Origin: an uncultured Bacilli bacterium
GTDB lineage: Bacteria > Bacillota_I > Bacilli_A > RF39 > UBA660
Length of the DNA: 64,000 bases
Assembly (NCBI GenBank): GCA_944371525.1
Contig: CALVXP010000001.1
Span: 24,860-88,859 of the forward strand
Direction: 5' to 3'
In this document: one piece after another, positions 3,191-61,857 of the stretch
Position numbering within the stretch: the stretch's first letter is position 1
How the letters are laid out: every line of letters starts with the position of its first letter
Position numbers and translations under genes: made by a program
Notes under the pieces: model-generated
Told to the model about the DNA's origin: nothing
Databases searched by the model: none
The model's input: only the letters and a program-made list of their open reading frames with translations

Positions 3191-4261
3191 ATGAAGAGAA
3201 TATTGTATAGTTTGATAAATTGTTTGAACTTAGGGTTTAACTTAATTATTAAATACAAAATTATTTATTTGTTCATATTATTTTTATCATTTTTATTAAC
3301 TTCTCATACAACATTTAAACTACTCACATTAGAAAATAAAATTAATACAATTAAAAATAATATAACTCTTAAATTAGAAAATTATGTAAAAATTGAATAT
3401 TCCAATGTAGAAAATAATTATCATAATGGAGCACTAGGTCTCGCAAATTGTTTAAAAATACCATTAAACGAAACAGAATTAACAAGCAAAATGAATGAGA
3501 TAAAAAATGAATTAGAAAATTTATTTAATGAAAGTGAATTAAATTTTGCTTTTAAATATAAAGATATTTATACTGGATTTTCTTTATCATATAACAGTAA
3601 TCAAAATATATTTGCAGCTAGTACAATAAAAGCCCCAGAAGCAATATATATATATAAAGAAGCAGAAAATAAAAACATTGATTTAAATGACACTTTAACT
3701 TATACAGATAATTTTTATTCTGATGGAACCGGTATTTTAAAAGACACTCCTCCAAACAAAGCATATAACATACATGATTTAGTTAAATATTCAATTGTAA
3801 ATAGCGATAATATAGCACATTTAATTTTGAATAGCAAATACGGAAGTCAAAACATTTATAATTATTGGAAAAATTTAGGAACTACTGTAATATATGATAA
3901 CAATGGACCATGGGGAAACATTAATGCAAATGATGCTACTATAATAATGGAAGAATTGTATAACTATTATATGGACAATAATTATAGTTTTAATGAAGAA
4001 TTGATTAATTATTTTATTAATTCATGGAAAATTATTTCTAACCCAAATAAAAACATAAAAATAGCAAGCAAATCAGGTTGGAGTAATACCTCTTTACATG
4101 ATATGGCACTTATTTTCGATGAAAATCCATATATTCTTGTTATATTAACAAATAGAGGATATGTTGAATACCAAAGTTTTTTTAACAAAGTTTCTTCCCT
4201 AATTGCTGAATTTCAAAATCTTTATTGGGAAAAGAAAATGAATCGATGCATTAACATATAA
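3191..4261 (+). CDS. Class A beta-lactamase-like serine hydrolase, membrane-anchored or secreted
   Basis: STIK (SxxK), SDN and KSG motifs. N-terminal hydrophobic segment. Start at 3191 with an AGGAG RBS; the annotated upstream extension is unlikely. Confidence 0.55.
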   Translation: MKRILYSLINCLNLGFNLIIKYKIIYLFILFLSFLLTSHTTFKLLTLENKINTIKNNITLKLENYVKIEYSNVENNYHNGALGLANCLKIPLNETELTSKMNEIKNELENLFNESELNFAFKYKDIYTGFSLSYNSNQNIFAASTIKAPEAIYIYKEAENKNIDLNDTLTYTDNFYSDGTGILKDTPPNKAYNIHDLVKYSIVNSDNIAHLILNSKYGSQNIYNYWKNLGTTVIYDNNGPWGNINANDATIIMEELYNYYMDNNYSFNEELINYFINSWKIISNPNKNIKIASKSGWSNTSLHDMALIFDENPYILVILTNRGYVEYQSFFNKVSSLIAEFQNLYWEKKMNRCINI

Positions 4262-4582
4262 TTACTTAACTTTTACTAAGTATAATCTCTTTCGAAAAGC
4301 ACCACGCTTTTCTTTTTTTATATTTCTACATTTAATTAGATCTTCTAATGTATAACCATTATACTCTAATAAAGCAATTAATACTTCTAATACATCAGAA
4401 CATTCTTCTAAAGTCTCTTGTTTGGTTTTAGATTCTATTACTTCCTTGTATTCTTCATATAACTTTTTTAATATTTCTTCTTTATATTCAATATCATCTA
4501 ATACTCTTATTATAGGCTCTTCTCCATTATTCTTTATTATTTCAGGAATTTTATCCCTGACTAATTTATTATATTCTTTCAT
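4262..4582 (-). CDS. MazG-like all-alpha nucleotide pyrophosphohydrolase
   Basis: KLVRDKIPEII motif and EExxD/E acidic helices typical of the MazG/PRA-PH fold. Confidence 0.5.
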   Translation of the reverse strand: MKEYNKLVRDKIPEIIKNNGEEPIIRVLDDIEYKEEILKKLYEEYKEVIESKTKQETLEECSDVLEVLIALLEYNGYTLEDLIKCRNIKKEKRGAFRKRLYLVKVK

Positions 4583-4584
4583 AA

Positions 4585-7509
4585 TTATCTCTCCAATACT
4601 TCTAGATTGCTTACTATAACCTGATACTTGTCATATCTTCTTTCTACGACTCCATTAAATTTAACTATATCATTTACTTTTATATCATTATATTTTTCAT
4701 ATACTTTAGGAAATATTGTTAAATTAACCATTCCATATTCATCACTTGCATATATAAATGCCATAACATCATTTTTCTTAGTTACTATTTCTTTTATTCT
4801 ATTTACTTTTAATATTATAGTTATTCTTTTATCAAATAAATTTGGTATATTTAATGAATTGGTATCATCAACATTTTTATATTTACTAATTGGATCTTCA
4901 TTTAAGTAAAAACCAAATGTATTAAGTTCAAGAGTTGCTAAATATTCTTTTGGATACTCTTCATATATTACTAATTCTGGTTTTTCTATTTCAATAAGTC
5001 CAATGTCTTTAGACAGTTCTGCATAATTTAAAATTTCATCCAAGTTGTTAACAAGTGTATTTTTATTATAATTAAATTCATTAAAACATCCTGCTTCAAT
5101 TAAAGAGGTTATTGTTTTTCTATTAATTCCTAATGTATAAGTTCTTGTAACAAAATCTATAAAATCTGTAAATATCCCTTTTTCTCTTTCTTTTATTATT
5201 TGATTAGTTATAGTAGTACCAACATTTCTTATTATTGATAAAGGACACATTATTCCGTCAGTTACTGCAATATATTTATTAGTACTTTTATTAATACTAG
5301 GAAGTAGTACTTTTAAATTATTTGCTCGACATTCACTAATATAAATTTTTGTTTTGTAATCACTTCCTATTACATTAGTAAGTAAATTAGACATAAAATA
5401 TTTAAAGAAATATGTTTTTATAAACGCCATTTTATAAGCAATTATTGTATACGCTACTGAATGCGCTCTATTAAATCCATAATTAGCAAACTTAAGAATT
5501 AAGTCATAAACTTTTTTAGCAATATCTTTAGAATATCCTTTATTAATACTCCTTTCTATAAATTTAGATTCTTCTTTTAATAAAATTTCTTCTTTCTTCT
5601 TAGACATTGCTCTTCTTAAAATATCTGCTTCTCCTAGAGTATAACCCGCTAAAACCTGGGCTATTTGCATTATTTGTTCTTGATAAATTATTATTCCATA
5701 TGTAGGCTTTAAAATATTTTCTAAATCTTTATGAATATAGTCTATTTGTTCCTTTCCTTCTTTTCTTTTAATATAAGTATCAATATTATCCATAGGACCA
5801 GGTCTATATAAAGCAATTGCTGCAATTAAATCTTCAATATTATTAGGTTGTAATTTTTTTAAGAAAGAACGCATCCCTGGAGACTCAAATTGAAATATTC
5901 CATCAGTATTAGCAATTTTAAATATTTCATATGTTTTCTTATCATCAAGAGGTATCCTACTAAATGTTATATTTAATTTTTCTTTTTCTCTTATTTCTTT
6001 TATTACAGAATCAATTAAAGTTAAATTACTAAGTCCTAAGAAATCCATTTTTAATAACCCTAATGGTTCTAAATAATTCATAGAGTATCCTGTAACATAC
6101 ATTCCTAATTGATTTTTATAAAGTGGTATAGTCTCATCAATATCGTATCTACTCATAACGATACCAGCTGCATGAATAGATACATGCCTAGGTAGACCTT
6201 CTAATTTAAGGGCAATTTTATATATTTTTTTAAATATATCCACTGAATCTACTGTCATTTTAAACTTTTTATCATTTATGTAATTATCTTCTAATTTATC
6301 ATACTTAATTAATTTAGCAAATCCATCAACAGAATTGTTATCAACTTTTAATACTCTTGCAACATCTCTTATTACTTGTTTAGCACCAAGAGTATTAAAT
6401 GTAATAATACCAGCAACTTTCTTTTCACCATATTTATCTATTACATATTCAATTACTTCATTTCTTTTTTCAGAATCAAAGTCAATATCAATATCGGGCA
6501 TTGTTACTCTCTCAGGGTTTAAAAATCTTTCAAATAGTAAATTATATTTAATCGGATCTATATCTGTAATTCCCAATGTATAACTTACTAAACTACCCGC
6601 TGCGCTTCCTCTTCCTGGTCCTACTAAAATATCATGAAATTTAGCATATTTAACATAATCCCATACAATTAAAAAATAATTACAAAATCCCATTTTATTT
6701 ATAATATCTAGTTCATAATCTAGTCTATTTTTATACTCTTTTGTTACATTACCATCTAATCTTTTATCAAGACCTTTATAACATAAGTTTCTTAAATATT
6801 CATATGCGTCAATACTTTTATCATATATAGGCAACAAATCAGGTGTATATTCAATATTTAAGTTACAATCATTTGCTATATTAATAGTATTTTTTATATC
6901 TTCAATATCGCAAATACTCTCTACTTCTCTTTGATCTATTAAATATTTACCAACATGTGTATTTAATTCATATTCCCCGATTACTTTACTATCTTTTATC
7001 ATATATAAATAATCTAAATATTTATAATCTTCTTTTTCTAAATAAGATACATCATTTATAAATACTTTAGGTTTATTAATTTTTACTTTTTCTTCTTTGG
7101 TAGAGTATCCTATAAATTTATCTTCATATATATTATAAATATTATTATCATAAGTAGATATAGGAATAATTAAAATAAGGTTATCTTTATGCCTAATTAA
7201 ATCATCTAATACTAATTCTCTATCAGATATAAGAGTAGATAATTTAATTAAATTTTTATAACCATCTTTATTTTTAGCATATAATAATATTTTACTATCA
7301 TTTATTTTTAATTCTATACCTATTATTGGTTTTATATCATTTTTCTTACATTCAAGATAAAATTCCATTACCCCAAACATATTATTTGTATCTGTAATGG
7401 CTAAAGAGGTGTAACCTAGTTCTTTGGCCTTCTTTACAAGTTTAGGTATATGATTTAAGCTTTCTAATATTGAATAACTTGTCTTAACCTGTAATGCCAC
7501 ATATTCCAT
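4585..7509 (-). CDS. dnaE: DNA polymerase III alpha subunit DnaE
   Basis: 974 aa. N-terminal PHP domain and the polymerase core. PDIDIDF. Confidence 0.9.
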   Translation of the reverse strand: MEYVALQVKTSYSILESLNHIPKLVKKAKELGYTSLAITDTNNMFGVMEFYLECKKNDIKPIIGIELKINDSKILLYAKNKDGYKNLIKLSTLISDRELVLDDLIRHKDNLILIIPISTYDNNIYNIYEDKFIGYSTKEEKVKINKPKVFINDVSYLEKEDYKYLDYLYMIKDSKVIGEYELNTHVGKYLIDQREVESICDIEDIKNTINIANDCNLNIEYTPDLLPIYDKSIDAYEYLRNLCYKGLDKRLDGNVTKEYKNRLDYELDIINKMGFCNYFLIVWDYVKYAKFHDILVGPGRGSAAGSLVSYTLGITDIDPIKYNLLFERFLNPERVTMPDIDIDFDSEKRNEVIEYVIDKYGEKKVAGIITFNTLGAKQVIRDVARVLKVDNNSVDGFAKLIKYDKLEDNYINDKKFKMTVDSVDIFKKIYKIALKLEGLPRHVSIHAAGIVMSRYDIDETIPLYKNQLGMYVTGYSMNYLEPLGLLKMDFLGLSNLTLIDSVIKEIREKEKLNITFSRIPLDDKKTYEIFKIANTDGIFQFESPGMRSFLKKLQPNNIEDLIAAIALYRPGPMDNIDTYIKRKEGKEQIDYIHKDLENILKPTYGIIIYQEQIMQIAQVLAGYTLGEADILRRAMSKKKEEILLKEESKFIERSINKGYSKDIAKKVYDLILKFANYGFNRAHSVAYTIIAYKMAFIKTYFFKYFMSNLLTNVIGSDYKTKIYISECRANNLKVLLPSINKSTNKYIAVTDGIMCPLSIIRNVGTTITNQIIKEREKGIFTDFIDFVTRTYTLGINRKTITSLIEAGCFNEFNYNKNTLVNNLDEILNYAELSKDIGLIEIEKPELVIYEEYPKEYLATLELNTFGFYLNEDPISKYKNVDDTNSLNIPNLFDKRITIILKVNRIKEIVTKKNDVMAFIYASDEYGMVNLTIFPKVYEKYNDIKVNDIVKFNGVVERRYDKYQVIVSNLEVLER

Positions 7510-56243: not shown

Positions 56244-56289
56244 AAAACCTATAAGTTTTTTAAGACTTATAGGTTAATTTTTTTTCTCT
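56244..56289. terminator. Bidirectional terminator
   Basis: aacctataagt-tttttaag-acttataggtt followed by T8. Confidence 0.55.
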
Positions 56290-57774
56290 TGAATCATTCA
56301 ATATAAATACTAATTCTTCATCACCATTTATCAAATCAAATGAAAATCCATTTGTATTTAATTCATATTTTATAACATCAGCTACAGTTATTATGTCACC
56401 TTTGTTTTTGCCTAAATTCATTACATAATAATTATATATTAATTTACTAACAATTTCGTTAATTTTTATTAAAATTGGATTTAATTTTTTAGGCATTTCT
56501 ACACTTATATACCTTCTTGTTTCAAAATCAGAATTTTCATAAAAATCTGTTTCCTTTTTGTATGCATTTAACCACTTAAATAATATATTATCCCTTTCTG
56601 TTAAATTATATTTTATATTACTTAAAATATACACTATTTTTTCCTTCAAAGTACCATAATGAAGAGTATTATATAAAAACATAATATTCCTAATATCTTT
56701 ATTAGCAAAATCTTTAACTATAAATATGCTTATTATATCATTAGCAGGTATTTCATAAAAAGCATATAATTCATCTATATAATTACTTTTATCATAAGGA
56801 AGACCTTTACAAATTGCCTCAGCCCTTCTGTTATAATCTAATGGTTTATATAGTTTTTGATTATTACATAAAAAAGTTATTCCACTTCTTATGAAATTTT
56901 TAAATGCTTCTCCATTTTTATCAATTAAACTAGTAGGAACAACAGATATCCAATGTAAATAATTTCCACCATCAAAATTTTTTGGAAATCTCAAGTTCTC
57001 TGATTGCATTTTTTTATAAGATAATATTCCTTTTGTCAATATACTTTTTAACCTAAAAAAATCAAATCCTACACTATGTAAACAATCTCCATTAATACAC
57101 TCCAATTCAGTTATATCAAAATTATTTATTTCCATTAACCTATAATATTCTTTATTCATTTCTACTGCTAAAGGTATTAATTCATGCGTTATATTAAATC
57201 TTAAAAATTTACTGTTTAATGCTGCATTACTTTTATCTACAAATCTTTTTCTATCAAGTGCATCTGCATCTTTTAATATTTTAGCTAAAATTTCATAACG
57301 CTCATAATGTTCTTCATCTATTTCATAATTTTCAAAATTAATTCTTAATTTTCTATCATTTTGAGAATGATAATCTATTATAGCTTTTAATATTTTTAAA
57401 TTATTACTATCGCTATATATATCGGTATTTACTACCTCTTCTATCATATTTGCACTAGCTAATCCATGAAATGAATCTTCAAAATCATTAATTCTTCCTA
57501 TATCATGATATATTGCAGCATCTAATAATATTTCCATATCGACTTGATCTAATTTTTGATCTAAACCTATCAAATATGCATTAAGTGCTACTTTCTCACT
57601 GTGATAAATACCATGTATATCACTTTTATACATATATTCTTTTTTTATTTCTCTTATTCTTTTTTTAAAATATTTTATTTCTTCATAAGATAATTTATTT
57701 AATATTTGTTTTAAAATAGATTTATTTTCTAATTTATCTGTGTCTTTTATTAAAGTTTCCATAAAGCTTTCCAT
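56260..57774 (-). CDS. HD-domain phosphohydrolase N-terminus fused to an unknown 300-aa C-terminal region
   Basis: H...HD...H...D pattern: IHGIYHSEK / AIYHDIGR / DADALDRKRF. Confidence 0.55.
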   Translation of the reverse strand: MESFMETLIKDTDKLENKSILKQILNKLSYEEIKYFKKRIREIKKEYMYKSDIHGIYHSEKVALNAYLIGLDQKLDQVDMEILLDAAIYHDIGRINDFEDSFHGLASANMIEEVVNTDIYSDSNNLKILKAIIDYHSQNDRKLRINFENYEIDEEHYERYEILAKILKDADALDRKRFVDKSNAALNSKFLRFNITHELIPLAVEMNKEYYRLMEINNFDITELECINGDCLHSVGFDFFRLKSILTKGILSYKKMQSENLRFPKNFDGGNYLHWISVVPTSLIDKNGEAFKNFIRSGITFLCNNQKLYKPLDYNRRAEAICKGLPYDKSNYIDELYAFYEIPANDIISIFIVKDFANKDIRNIMFLYNTLHYGTLKEKIVYILSNIKYNLTERDNILFKWLNAYKKETDFYENSDFETRRYISVEMPKKLNPILIKINEIVSKLIYNYYVMNLGKNKGDIITVADVIKYELNTNGFSFDLINGDEELVFILNDSREKKLTYKS

Positions 57775-58963
57775 GTTGTATCTCCTCTATTTTTTCTTTT
57801 TCATATTCTGACAAATCAACATATTCTGATATTTCTTCATATGTTTTTTTATATATATATTTTGTTCTATCATAAACAGCATCATAATAAAACCAGCCAT
57901 CAACAGTTTTAATTCTCAATAAAGCATGATTATTTACTATCGAATAATTATATCTTCGATCATGGCAATGAACATTCTCACTATCAATACCTAACATACT
58001 AAGCATTATATGCATTAAATTGACTATTCCTTCACAATTACCATAATTAAAATGAAAAGTACTATAACTATTGTGTAAAAAACTTAATCTTTTTTTATAG
58101 AAATCTGGTATTCCATTATATTTGTTTAATATTTCTTCATATAATGTTTCTCTTTCAATTAATTCATTTTGGGCAAATTTAATTCTTAAACCATATTCAT
58201 AAACATATTGTATTTTTTCTTCTTCTGTTTTTTCAAAAACTTTATTTGCTTGTAATCTTCTTCTTAACTTTGTGTATAATTCAGTAATATTAGATAAATA
58301 TGTAGTAGTATATTGTAATAATCCACTTTTTTCTGAAAATTGAACATTTATTTTACCACTTATTGATTTTTCGTACAATTTTTTAGAATCTTTTACTGAT
58401 TTTATTTTTGAAAAATATGTGTCTGAATCTAATATATTTACAGTAGCATCTAGGGTATTATTTAAATATTCATCAAAATCTTCAAAAACTTTTATATTAT
58501 TGCCATACATTACAACCATTTCTAAAAAATGAAGATTGCCCATATTAAGTAAATGAGTTAAATTAGGATTATTCGCTAAAGTTAATTTCTTTAAATTAAC
58601 TAGTTCTTTTAAACTTATCTTTTCTATATTAATATCATTTATTATTTCTAATTCTTCTAGTTGAACAAGATTTTCTATTACACTAAAATCTTTTATATTA
58701 TTAAATAATATATTATTTTGATAAGAGCCTCCTTCTAAAACATTACTATAATCTTCACTATATATTCTTAGTTTTTTTAAACATGGTAAATATGCTAAAA
58801 AATTTATATCTTCCATTCCTTGAATAGTTAATTCTTTTATTTTAGACAAATCTTCCATATTAAAATAACTAAAATTTTTAGATGTTATCGATAAAAATCT
58901 ATCAACACCTTGTTTCTTTAATTCATTATCTAAAAATATTGCCGTTACTAAATCAAAATCCAT
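57734..58963 (-). CDS. Leucine-rich-repeat N-terminus plus transglutaminase-like cysteine peptidase C-terminus
   Basis: LRR blocks such as LxxLxxLxLxxN. GNCEG (Cys), NHALLRI (His), WFYYDAVYD (Asp). 41-nt overlap with the HD gene. Confidence 0.5.
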   Translation of the reverse strand: MDFDLVTAIFLDNELKKQGVDRFLSITSKNFSYFNMEDLSKIKELTIQGMEDINFLAYLPCLKKLRIYSEDYSNVLEGGSYQNNILFNNIKDFSVIENLVQLEELEIINDINIEKISLKELVNLKKLTLANNPNLTHLLNMGNLHFLEMVVMYGNNIKVFEDFDEYLNNTLDATVNILDSDTYFSKIKSVKDSKKLYEKSISGKINVQFSEKSGLLQYTTTYLSNITELYTKLRRRLQANKVFEKTEEEKIQYVYEYGLRIKFAQNELIERETLYEEILNKYNGIPDFYKKRLSFLHNSYSTFHFNYGNCEGIVNLMHIMLSMLGIDSENVHCHDRRYNYSIVNNHALLRIKTVDGWFYYDAVYDRTKYIYKKTYEEISEYVDLSEYEKEKIEEIQHGKLYGNFNKRHR

Positions 58964-59092
58964 AAATTCACTTCCAAAACTTAAATTTGTTAATATTTTA
59001 TCATATTAGTAAAAATAGGTCAAATTATTTGATTTTTAACAAATTTGCTTTATTTATTTTTTTTTGTTATAATTAATTTGGGTGGTTATATT

Positions 59093-59721: not shown

Positions 59722-60198
59722 ATGTATTTTAAATGTTTAAGTGATAACCAATATTTATTAATTGTTGATAATATAGAAATTAATAATATTGATGTATTTG
59801 ACAATGCAGAATTAAAAAAATTTATTGGTAAAATATTGCCTAAATATTTAAAAAAAATTACTAATAATGGTTTTTTTACTCTAGATATTTATTGGAATAA
59901 TTATTTTGGAATGATTTTTGATATAAAAAAAGAAAAAAGGAATAATAAATTTAATTATATAGATTTAAAAATAAAATTTCATCTTAATAGTGAGATTTTA
60001 TATAAAATAGATTATTTTAATTTGAAAGAATTAAATAATATAAAAAAGCAGAAAATATTTTATTATAAATGTAATTATTACTTAAAACTAATTAATCCTA
60101 TTTCCAACAATAGTTTTATTAAACTAATGGATTATAGCGAAATTATTTATAGTAATTATCAAGATATTGTACATAAAGGAATTAAACTATATATATAG
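59722..60198 (+). CDS. Hypothetical 158-aa protein (weak MecA-adaptor-like N-terminus)
   Basis: ORF only. Confidence 0.3.
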   Translation: MYFKCLSDNQYLLIVDNIEINNIDVFDNAELKKFIGKILPKYLKKITNNGFFTLDIYWNNYFGMIFDIKKEKRNNKFNYIDLKIKFHLNSEILYKIDYFNLKELNNIKKQKIFYYKCNYYLKLINPISNNSFIKLMDYSEIIYSNYQDIVHKGIKLYI

Positions 60199-61605: not shown

Positions 61606-61857
61606 ATGAGTTTTTCAGATAGCTTTTTTAAAAAAATAGAAAAAAAAACTAATGTTAATAAAGAAACTATATTATCGTTAGCTAGTAAATTACAACAAGG
61701 GAATATGAAAGATGAAAATACTTTAAGAGAAGTAATACATGATATATCTAATATGACAGGTAGAGAGGTATCAAAAGAAAAGGAACAAAAAATTATTAAT
61801 GCCGTATTAAATGATAAAGTTCCTTCTAATTTAGATAAATTTATTGATAATGACTAA
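61606..61857 (+). CDS. Small hypothetical protein, possibly sporulation-associated (SpoVIF-like)
   Basis: 83 aa. Weak resemblance only. Confidence 0.3.
   Translation: MSFSDSFFKKIEKKTNVNKETILSLASKLQQGNMKDENTLREVIHDISNMTGREVSKEKEQKIINAVLNDKVPSNLDKFIDND

Follow-up and report, generated by a model that had tools for sequence, protein, structure and literature searches.

A 64,000-nucleotide stretch of DNA from an uncultured Bacilli bacterium (contig CALVXP010000001.1, positions 24,860 to 88,859; hereafter the window) carries on its minus strand two overlapping genes: gene 1, for a protein of leucine-rich repeats (LRRs) with a transglutaminase-fold core, and gene 2, for an HD phosphohydrolase domain fused to a C-terminal region of about 300 residues. 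The two genes form a real functional pair, and structure prediction indicates that the C-terminal region of the gene 2 protein probably adopts an ADP-ribosyltransferase (ART) fold. The initial annotation of this DNA had read the pair as a peptidase or cross-linking enzyme with a nucleotide or phosphoester hydrolase; its domains, its overlap and the functional pairing stand, while the reading lacked the ART module, and the ART-fold finding therefore shifts it to an NAD+/ADP-ribose modification system. We propose, tentatively and at slightly less than an even chance, that the pair encodes a cytoplasmic assembly of three catalytic modules in which NAD+-dependent ADP-ribosylation is coupled to phosphodiester processing.

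Domains and linkage of the gene pair

Both open reading frames (ORFs), their sizes and their overlap are exactly as first described, and the pair is laid out as follows.

57734..58963, minus strand: gene 1, LRR and transglutaminase-fold protein of 409 amino acids (aa), by ORF check
56260..57774, minus strand: gene 2, HD and ART-like protein of 504 aa, by ORF check
57734..57774, minus strand: overlap of the end of gene 1 with the start of gene 2, 41 nt
57130..57774, minus strand: HD phosphohydrolase domain, gene 2 residues 1-215, from Pfam HD and invariant columns
56680..57129, minus strand: predicted DarT-like ART fold, gene 2 residues ~216-365, with H233, S277 and E335, from AlphaFold2, Foldseek, hhalign and conservation
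56260..56679, minus strand: long helical hairpin or bundle with a small C-terminal beta unit, gene 2 residues ~366-504, including the stop codon, from the secondary structure of the models

The C-terminal region had been described as a 300-aa region of unknown fold, and it does escape Pfam: a scan of the C-terminal domains (~290 residues) of 23 family members gave no match at E up to 5, DUF4433 (PF14487) included. What had been missed is a probable DarT-like ART fold followed by a helical domain. The first lead to an ART was a weak phmmer match to the DarT-DarG fusion 7omu. When the full-length gene 2 protein was modelled with AlphaFold2 (pLDDT 88.4, pTM 0.81), Foldseek returned only phosphodiesterase (PDE) and HD matches and nothing on the C-terminus, and residues 215-504 were then modelled alone from a 23-sequence alignment (pLDDT 88.3, pTM 0.87). 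The best match of this second model in the Protein Data Bank (PDB) was E. coli DarT1 with NAD+ (8baq; E 8.7e-3, probability 0.99), and ADP-ribosyltransferases filled nearly all of the leading ranks, among them pertussis toxin S1, EcPltA, the Rhs toxins TreTu and TreX, Scabin, Pierisin-1 and mosquitocidal toxin. Foldseek against the viral BFVD library gave nothing interpretable.

Relatives were collected in a one-genome-per-species scan, which gave 257 stretches with HD-ART relatives, 80 loci being kept; local hidden Markov model (HMM) searches covered these and further fetched loci, and linkage was counted over the non-redundant loci that hold a full HD-ART gene and enough upstream DNA (n=59). 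Across these 59 loci H233 and E335 are each present in 59/59 and S277 in 54/59, the three fall on consecutive predicted strands, ordered as an ART core would have them, and all three are nearly invariant in 43 distant stand-alone relatives too. The residues nearly invariant across the alignment of the ART-like domain (A4) are H, G, S, G and E. In DarT1 the H-Y-E triad is altered such that S63 replaces the tyrosine, E152 being the catalytic glutamate (PMC11543638), and on sequence grounds H233, S277 and E335 of gene 2 appear to be an H-S-E variant of the same DarT1 type.

The domain carries the motifs C-x-H-[SG]-[IV]-G, SIL..GILS, RNFxGGN, ISVV and DE-x-[YF]-V. Compared by hhalign with ten plasmid-borne genes annotated as DarT/DUF4433, its profile showed two distinct local matches in co-linear order, one over the SIL..GILS helix (P 3.4e-4) and one over the strand of the catalytic glutamate (P 8.6e-4), where DE-x-[YF]-V...I....I-G-I aligns with AE-x-L-[IV]...P...L-G-I of DarT. 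The fold match, the triad and the profile comparison are individually weak, and it is because they agree that we hold the predicted ART fold to be highly probable; that the ART is specifically DarT-like we favour with less assurance. The domain resembles DarT in its fold and motifs but falls outside DUF4433. Searched exhaustively with a profile of the C-terminal domain, 1.84 billion proteins yielded no more than 265 representatives, stand-alone proteins of ~250-290 aa included, and the helical tail accompanies the ART-like domain always, in the stand-alone relatives as well. One such relative (L088:6001-6759, also in L089 and L090) is a 252-aa ART-like and helical protein whose gene shares 23 nt with the 3' end of trmK, the order in L088 being dnaG-sigA, trmK, the stand-alone ART-like gene and a helix-turn-helix (HTH) gene.

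The N-terminal part of gene 2 is a well-supported HD domain: residues 56-175 score 38.4 bits in Pfam PF01966, where the cut-off is 22 (E 1.8e-9). Residues H54, H58, H90, D91, H103, H136, D169, D171 and D174 are conserved in all sequences that span those columns, and the two-metal ligands among them (H58, H90-D91, H103, H136 and D169/D171/D174) are invariant in the alignments A1 and A5, the latter of the HD subfamily, and in the 59 loci, with the subfamily motif KDADALDRxRF. Judged from these columns the ligand set looks complete, in the extended H-HD-H-H-D form typical of two-metal HD phosphodiesterases. The Foldseek matches of the full-length model were to the cyclic-nucleotide phosphodiesterases PDE5/2/9/10/4 (E ~3e-3), and the best PDB match by sequence was an HD-GYP cGAMP phosphodiesterase (E 0.017).

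The HD subfamily is far larger than the ART-like family and mostly stand-alone. A general fusion of the subfamily to ARTs was considered and rejected: among the best 120 of 998 profile matches none has a precomputed Pfam domain besides HD, and the link is seen only in the HD-ART family and in locus L074. The protein encoded there (L074:1640-4642, 1001 aa) begins with a Gly-rich region, continues with a classical R-S-E ART (PF03496, E 1.8e-24) and ends in an HD domain of the window-gene subfamily. Its sequence suggests a polymorphic or secreted toxin, and among the 80 loci it is the one instance of its type that was noticed. Some giant proteins, 1200-1600 aa long, also end in an HD domain of this subfamily (L072:677-4759, L073:1232-4783, L077:2-3847, L079:542-4618, L081:2-4741 and L083:2-4753) and share a middle region, LIHSxxAYG...NHG[IC]CCS...RHTHNE..ER...QPSY, that has no Pfam match. 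That this middle region (LIHSxxAYG...RHTHNE) is a second ART-like domain was likewise rejected, its hhalign probability against the ART-like profile being 0.3%. Paired tandem HD-only genes of the same subfamily occur at L066:3860-5393 and L067:3806-5407, with no transglutaminase or ART-like gene detected within 4 kb.

In the gene 1 protein a helical linker joins internalin-type LRRs (residues ~32-170) to a transglutaminase-fold core (~295-365, with C310, H346 and D361). In Pfam the window protein matches LRR_4 (E 1.6e-4) and, over residues 295-362, Transglut_core (E 4.5e-4; 20.9 bits against a cut-off of 23), both under the gathering cut-offs. Among 15 family members, Transglut_core matches 13 (best E 4e-8) and LRR_4 matches 11, and the family profile matches internalin, InlA and InlB in the PDB over residues ~32-160 with E from 1e-17 to 1e-9. 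The earlier LRR, transglutaminase-like Cys-His-Asp and HD calls are thus supported by Pfam or family profiles together with conserved residues, and the triad proposed then (GNCEG/NHALLRI/YYDAVYD) aligns across the 59 loci: C310 of GNCEG and H346 of NHAL are each found in 59/59, and position 361 of YYD holds D at 52 loci, E at 6 and N at 1.

The initial annotation had made the pairing depend on co-occurrence in other genomes. In 59/59 loci the HD-ART gene is directly preceded by a transglutaminase-family gene of the same orientation. The two genes usually overlap at the junction, by 0-71 nt and most often by 20-41 nt. Conversely, the gene 1 family is small (29 clusters in a word-indexed search), and within the loci examined all its strong matches (E < 1e-20) are immediately upstream of an HD gene. 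The pairwise identities of the gene 1 and gene 2 proteins rise and fall together (Pearson r 0.88, 1711 pairs). Both fusion and fission variants occur. Protein P0167 (locus L094) is a single chain of 852 aa with LRR-transglutaminase, HD and ART-like parts in that order, and it exceeds the cut-offs of both PF04473 and PF01841. In L098 and L099, by contrast, transglutaminase, HD (216 aa) and ART-like (290 aa) genes are separate and consecutive, those of L098 lying at 3797-5032, 5001-5651 and 5667-6539. These fusions and fissions indicate that the three modules belong together.

Locus, expression signals and inheritance

The stop codon of gene 1 falls 41 nt into gene 2, and a Shine-Dalgarno-like sequence lies within gene 1 just ahead of the gene 2 start; from this arrangement the two genes are probably translated in a coupled manner through their overlapping frames. 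The signals around the pair, where the DNA has ~22% G+C, are these.

57782-57788, minus strand: AGAGGAG, Shine-Dalgarno-like, within gene 1, 7 nt 5' of the gene 2 ATG (57774)
58995..59023, minus strand: sigma-70-type promoter-like site, TTGACC-17 nt-TG-n-TAAAAT, 5' of gene 1, a consensus match only
56246..56275, both strands: terminator-like hairpin at the convergent junction with the Zn_peptidase_2 gene, overlapping the last codons of gene 2

The promoter-like site agrees with the consensus at 10/12 positions, has an extended -10 TG, is the best in the region and sits in the 81-bp divergent gap to engB, although such sites are no more frequent in the region than in shuffled sequence; it looks sigma-A-like with an extended -10. 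Two terminator-like sites were found against 0.3 expected in shuffles. These consensus matches suggest that the pair is an autonomous two-gene operon.

Its neighbours in the window are cysS, a Zn_peptidase_2 membrane protein gene, engB (ysxC), a 158-aa ORF, der and the SpoVIF gene, in agreement with the cysS, ysxC and der named in the initial annotation. The 158-aa ORF (window 59722-60198, plus strand), which separates engB (ysxC) from der, is without a Pfam match and occupies the same place in the related contigs L095 and L096. An 83-aa ORF (window 61606-61857, plus strand) matches SpoVIF in related contigs, and since SpoVIF is encoded the host probably forms endospores, in spite of a very low G+C; SpoIIP and SspI are encoded in related genomes.

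Neither protein of the pair has a signal peptide or a transmembrane segment (the top Kyte-Doolittle 19-residue average of the gene 1 protein is 1.14), and both are therefore probably cytoplasmic rather than secreted effectors. Full-length homologues number in the hundreds, so that the two ORFs are genuine genes rather than products of chance.

The hosts are uncultured gut Bacilli and metagenome-assembled genomes (MAGs) labelled "Tenericutes/Mollicutes", including Coprobacillus sp. CAG:605, Acholeplasma sp. CAG:878, Ca. Faecisoma and Ca. Caccenecus, and the module appears to be fixed in this clade of uncultured, small-genome gut Bacilli. Its flanks are variable, the commonest neighbours (Mur ligases, a 176-aa ORF, a Clp ATPase and infC-rpmI-rplT) being present at only 12-18 of the 59 loci. 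At 17/59 loci (L001:6287-6796 and 16 others) the transglutaminase gene is immediately preceded by an ORF of ~170 aa with a mean identity of 65% and no Pfam match, which might be a lineage-specific fourth component or a mere syntenic neighbour. At the 13 loci that share infC and rplT, the divergence of the HD-ART protein is in step with that of their products, IF3 (r 0.81) and L20 (r 0.80), which suggests that the pair is inherited vertically. Among the recurrent flanking clusters of the 59 loci, none corresponds to an annotated integrase or transposase. A PADLOC-DB 2.0 scan gave no defence match, only Cas3-HD at E 0.18, and a PHROGs scan gave no useful matches. The initial statement that this is not a recognised housekeeping pair agrees with the lack of a PADLOC match, of an NCBIfam match above cut-off and of a description in the literature searched.

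Proposed pathway and its alternatives

Intact catalytic residues, obligate coupling, the probable cytoplasmic location and clade-wide presence together lead us to the NAD+-dependent modification pathway put forward above. The ART-like domain would use NAD+ to ADP-ribosylate a macromolecule, the site being on a protein or, as with DarT, on a nucleic-acid base. The fused HD phosphodiesterase would then cut the phosphodiester or pyrophosphate of the attached ADP-ribose, such that phosphoribose is left and AMP released, or the group is transferred; alternatively it might process an ADP-ribose-derived by-product. ART and HD would thus be a write-then-trim pair, with the same logic as the PDE-mART core of SidE, and we count the L074 fusion of the same HD subfamily to a bona fide ART as a precedent for such coupling. 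The LRR-transglutaminase protein, probably made in concert with the gene 2 protein, may bind the target or the enzyme through its LRRs, and its Cys-His-Asp site may cleave, deamidate or cross-link a protein of the same pathway. In this scheme we infer the ART activity, what the HD domain acts on, the sequence of steps, the target and the part played by the transglutaminase partner.

A number of observations weigh against it. The ART assignment draws on structure prediction and weak profile signals: the Foldseek matches to ARTs are modest (E ~1e-2, TM-scores 0.27-0.42), the hhalign probabilities of the short local DarT matches are 23-38%, and HMMER profiles (A1, A3 and A4) run against PDB sequences found no significant ART match, only a 25-residue match to 7omu at E 0.28. 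No HD enzyme is known to act on ADP-ribose adducts. The best 120 of the 998 profile matches of the HD subfamily are mostly proteins of 200-320 aa with no precomputed Pfam domain besides HD, so that coupling of HD to an ART is not general in that subfamily. The HD domain of the window keeps the classical metal ligands, whereas E340, H277 and H407 are reported as catalytic in the PDE domain of SdeA (PMC6941232). The pair also evolves fast (42% mean identity against 74% for IF3), which would fit a role in conflict as well, one of the options named in the initial annotation.

This last point bears on a rather unlikely alternative, in which the locus is a fused toxin-antitoxin or anti-phage module of the DarTG type, with a DarT-like transferase that arrests growth by acting on DNA or RNA, an HD domain that restrains it or serves as a second effector (a nuclease or a hydrolase of the NAD product), and an LRR-transglutaminase that senses an invader protein and, by proteolysis, frees or activates the effector. 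The nearest fold, DarT1, is a toxin-antitoxin and defence toxin; a natural single-chain DarT-macro fusion exists in 7omu, the very protein of the weak sequence match; a hydrolase gene follows annotated DarT genes; LRRs are typical sensor modules; the pair diverges much faster than its housekeeping neighbours; and in L074 the same HD subfamily stands behind a classical toxin-type ART. Against it, the PADLOC matches do not exceed noise, and the surroundings are housekeeping in kind: infC-rpmI-rplT, Mur ligases, a Clp ATPase, cysS, engB and der occur in the flanks, and the recurrent flanking clusters of the 59 loci match no annotated integrase or transposase. The divergence follows IF3 and L20, as in vertical descent, and the recovery of the pair at 59 non-redundant loci, and of HD-ART relatives in 257 stretches of the one-genome-per-species collection, is unlike the patchy spread of defence genes. 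Moreover, an HD phosphoesterase cannot, by established chemistry, cut the ribose-base glycosidic bond, so that it would be no simple equivalent of DarG or NADAR.

If the ART-like domain acted instead as a Tpt1/KptA enzyme or as an NADase, it would make a product such as ADP-ribose 1'',2''-cyclic phosphate (Appr>p), which the HD domain would hydrolyse under regulation by the transglutaminase, in a pathway of the RNA- or nucleotide-repair type. Yeast tRNA splicing is an established pathway that produces and clears Appr>p with an ART and a phosphodiesterase, precisely the pair needed for both tasks; the HD domain resembles cyclic-nucleotide phosphodiesterases, and stand-alone ART-like relatives occur in RNA or housekeeping operons, such as the L088 gene overlapping trmK after dnaG-sigA. 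Tpt1 structures are, however, not among the best 50 Foldseek matches, the catalytic set of Tpt1 is Arg-His-Arg-Arg and is not contained in the near-invariant residues of A4, and the scheme gives no role to the invariably coupled, LRR-guided Cys-His-Asp enzyme; we regard it as improbable. The weakness of the ART homology at the sequence level would also suit a C-terminal domain that is inactive, binding NAD+ or ADP-ribose or regulating the HD hydrolase structurally, and the pair would then be a peptidase or cross-linker with a regulated nucleotide phosphohydrolase, possibly in sporulation, much as the initial annotation had it. Bacillus transglutaminases cross-link spore coats, the host encodes SpoVIF, and SpoIIP and SspI are found in related genomes. 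Yet the putative catalytic Glu and His are each conserved in 59/59 loci and kept in distant stand-alone relatives, which argues for catalysis over binding, and the lack of signal peptides and transmembrane segments in both proteins and the sigma-A-like look of the promoter-like site also count against this reading; it, too, we consider improbable.

A bolder version of the write-then-trim proposal would have SidE-like chemistry inside the bacterium, with the DarT-like domain modifying a protein or nucleic acid, the HD domain converting ADP-ribose to a phosphoribosyl mark or to a phosphoribosyl cross-link with a second molecule, the LRR-transglutaminase selecting, cross-linking or cleaving the substrate, and the whole inherited vertically as a physiological pathway. 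Such a scheme by analogy is doubtful; if true, the HD domain would be a new class of ADP-ribose-processing enzyme and the phosphoribosylation pathway would be present in a whole clade of reduced-genome gut Bacilli.

Comparison with known systems

All of the folds are known, the ART-like family is outside Pfam, and the combination of the three modules is not described in the literature searched. An ART family without Pfam coverage would add to the bacterial ADP-ribosylation systems (DarTG, SidE and others), an active field, and its partners differ: where a macro or NADAR hydrolase is usual it has an HD phosphodiesterase, and a transglutaminase-fold enzyme targeted by LRRs accompanies it in every case. 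The apparently fixed, vertical pattern in the clade speaks for regulation within the cell more than for a weapon that moves between genomes. The module also raises the questions of whether HD domains can process ADP-ribose adducts and what job a DarT-like enzyme might do as a core gene.

With the Transglut_core (PF01841) and DUF553 (PF04473) enzymes, the gene 1 protein shares the usual Cys-His-Asp spacing and the motifs GNCEG...NHAL...YYD; it differs from them in that its core sits behind internalin-type LRRs in a probably cytoplasmic protein, and in that its family is seen only beside the HD-ART gene. The L074 protein unites an ART with the same HD subfamily (KDADALDRxRF) in a single polypeptide, but has the order ART then HD, an ART of the R-S-E class, a long Gly-rich N-terminus and no transglutaminase partner.

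The nearest working analogy is offered by SidE. According to PMC6941232, its PDE domains "resemble classical HD domains" and have as substrate ubiquitin that the mART domain has ADP-ribosylated. The module order of these Legionella proteins (DUB-PDE-mART-coiled coil) is that of P0167, namely a Cys-enzyme, an HD-type PDE, an ART and a helical tail. SdeA and SidE are absent from the best 50 Foldseek matches of both gene 2 models, and the parallel is one of architecture only, with no detectable homology, an analogy and not membership. The SdeA triad is of the R-S-E type and the SidE cysteine enzyme is a CE-clan deubiquitinase, whereas the window has a putative H-S-E triad and a transglutaminase-fold enzyme; SidE proteins are secreted effectors, whereas those of the window are probably cytoplasmic.

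As for DarTG, DarT1 (8baq) is the best structural match, the H-S-E triad appears in both, two co-linear motifs are common to the DarT proteins and the ART-like domain, and in both systems the transferase adjoins or is fused to a hydrolase that acts, or in the window would act, on ADP-ribose chemistry. The hydrolase of the window is, however, an HD phosphoesterase and not a macro or NADAR glycohydrolase, and no macro (DarG) or NADAR gene is among the recorded neighbours in the window and the loci examined. The module of the window further has an obligatory LRR-transglutaminase partner and a helical C-terminal domain, and lacks a Pfam DUF4433 match. PMC12170906 describes a chromosomal DarT system with a physiological role in M. 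tuberculosis, which is therefore a precedent for a role that is not mobile. DarTG systems are otherwise mobile and patchy, whereas the module of the window is clade-wide and syntenic.

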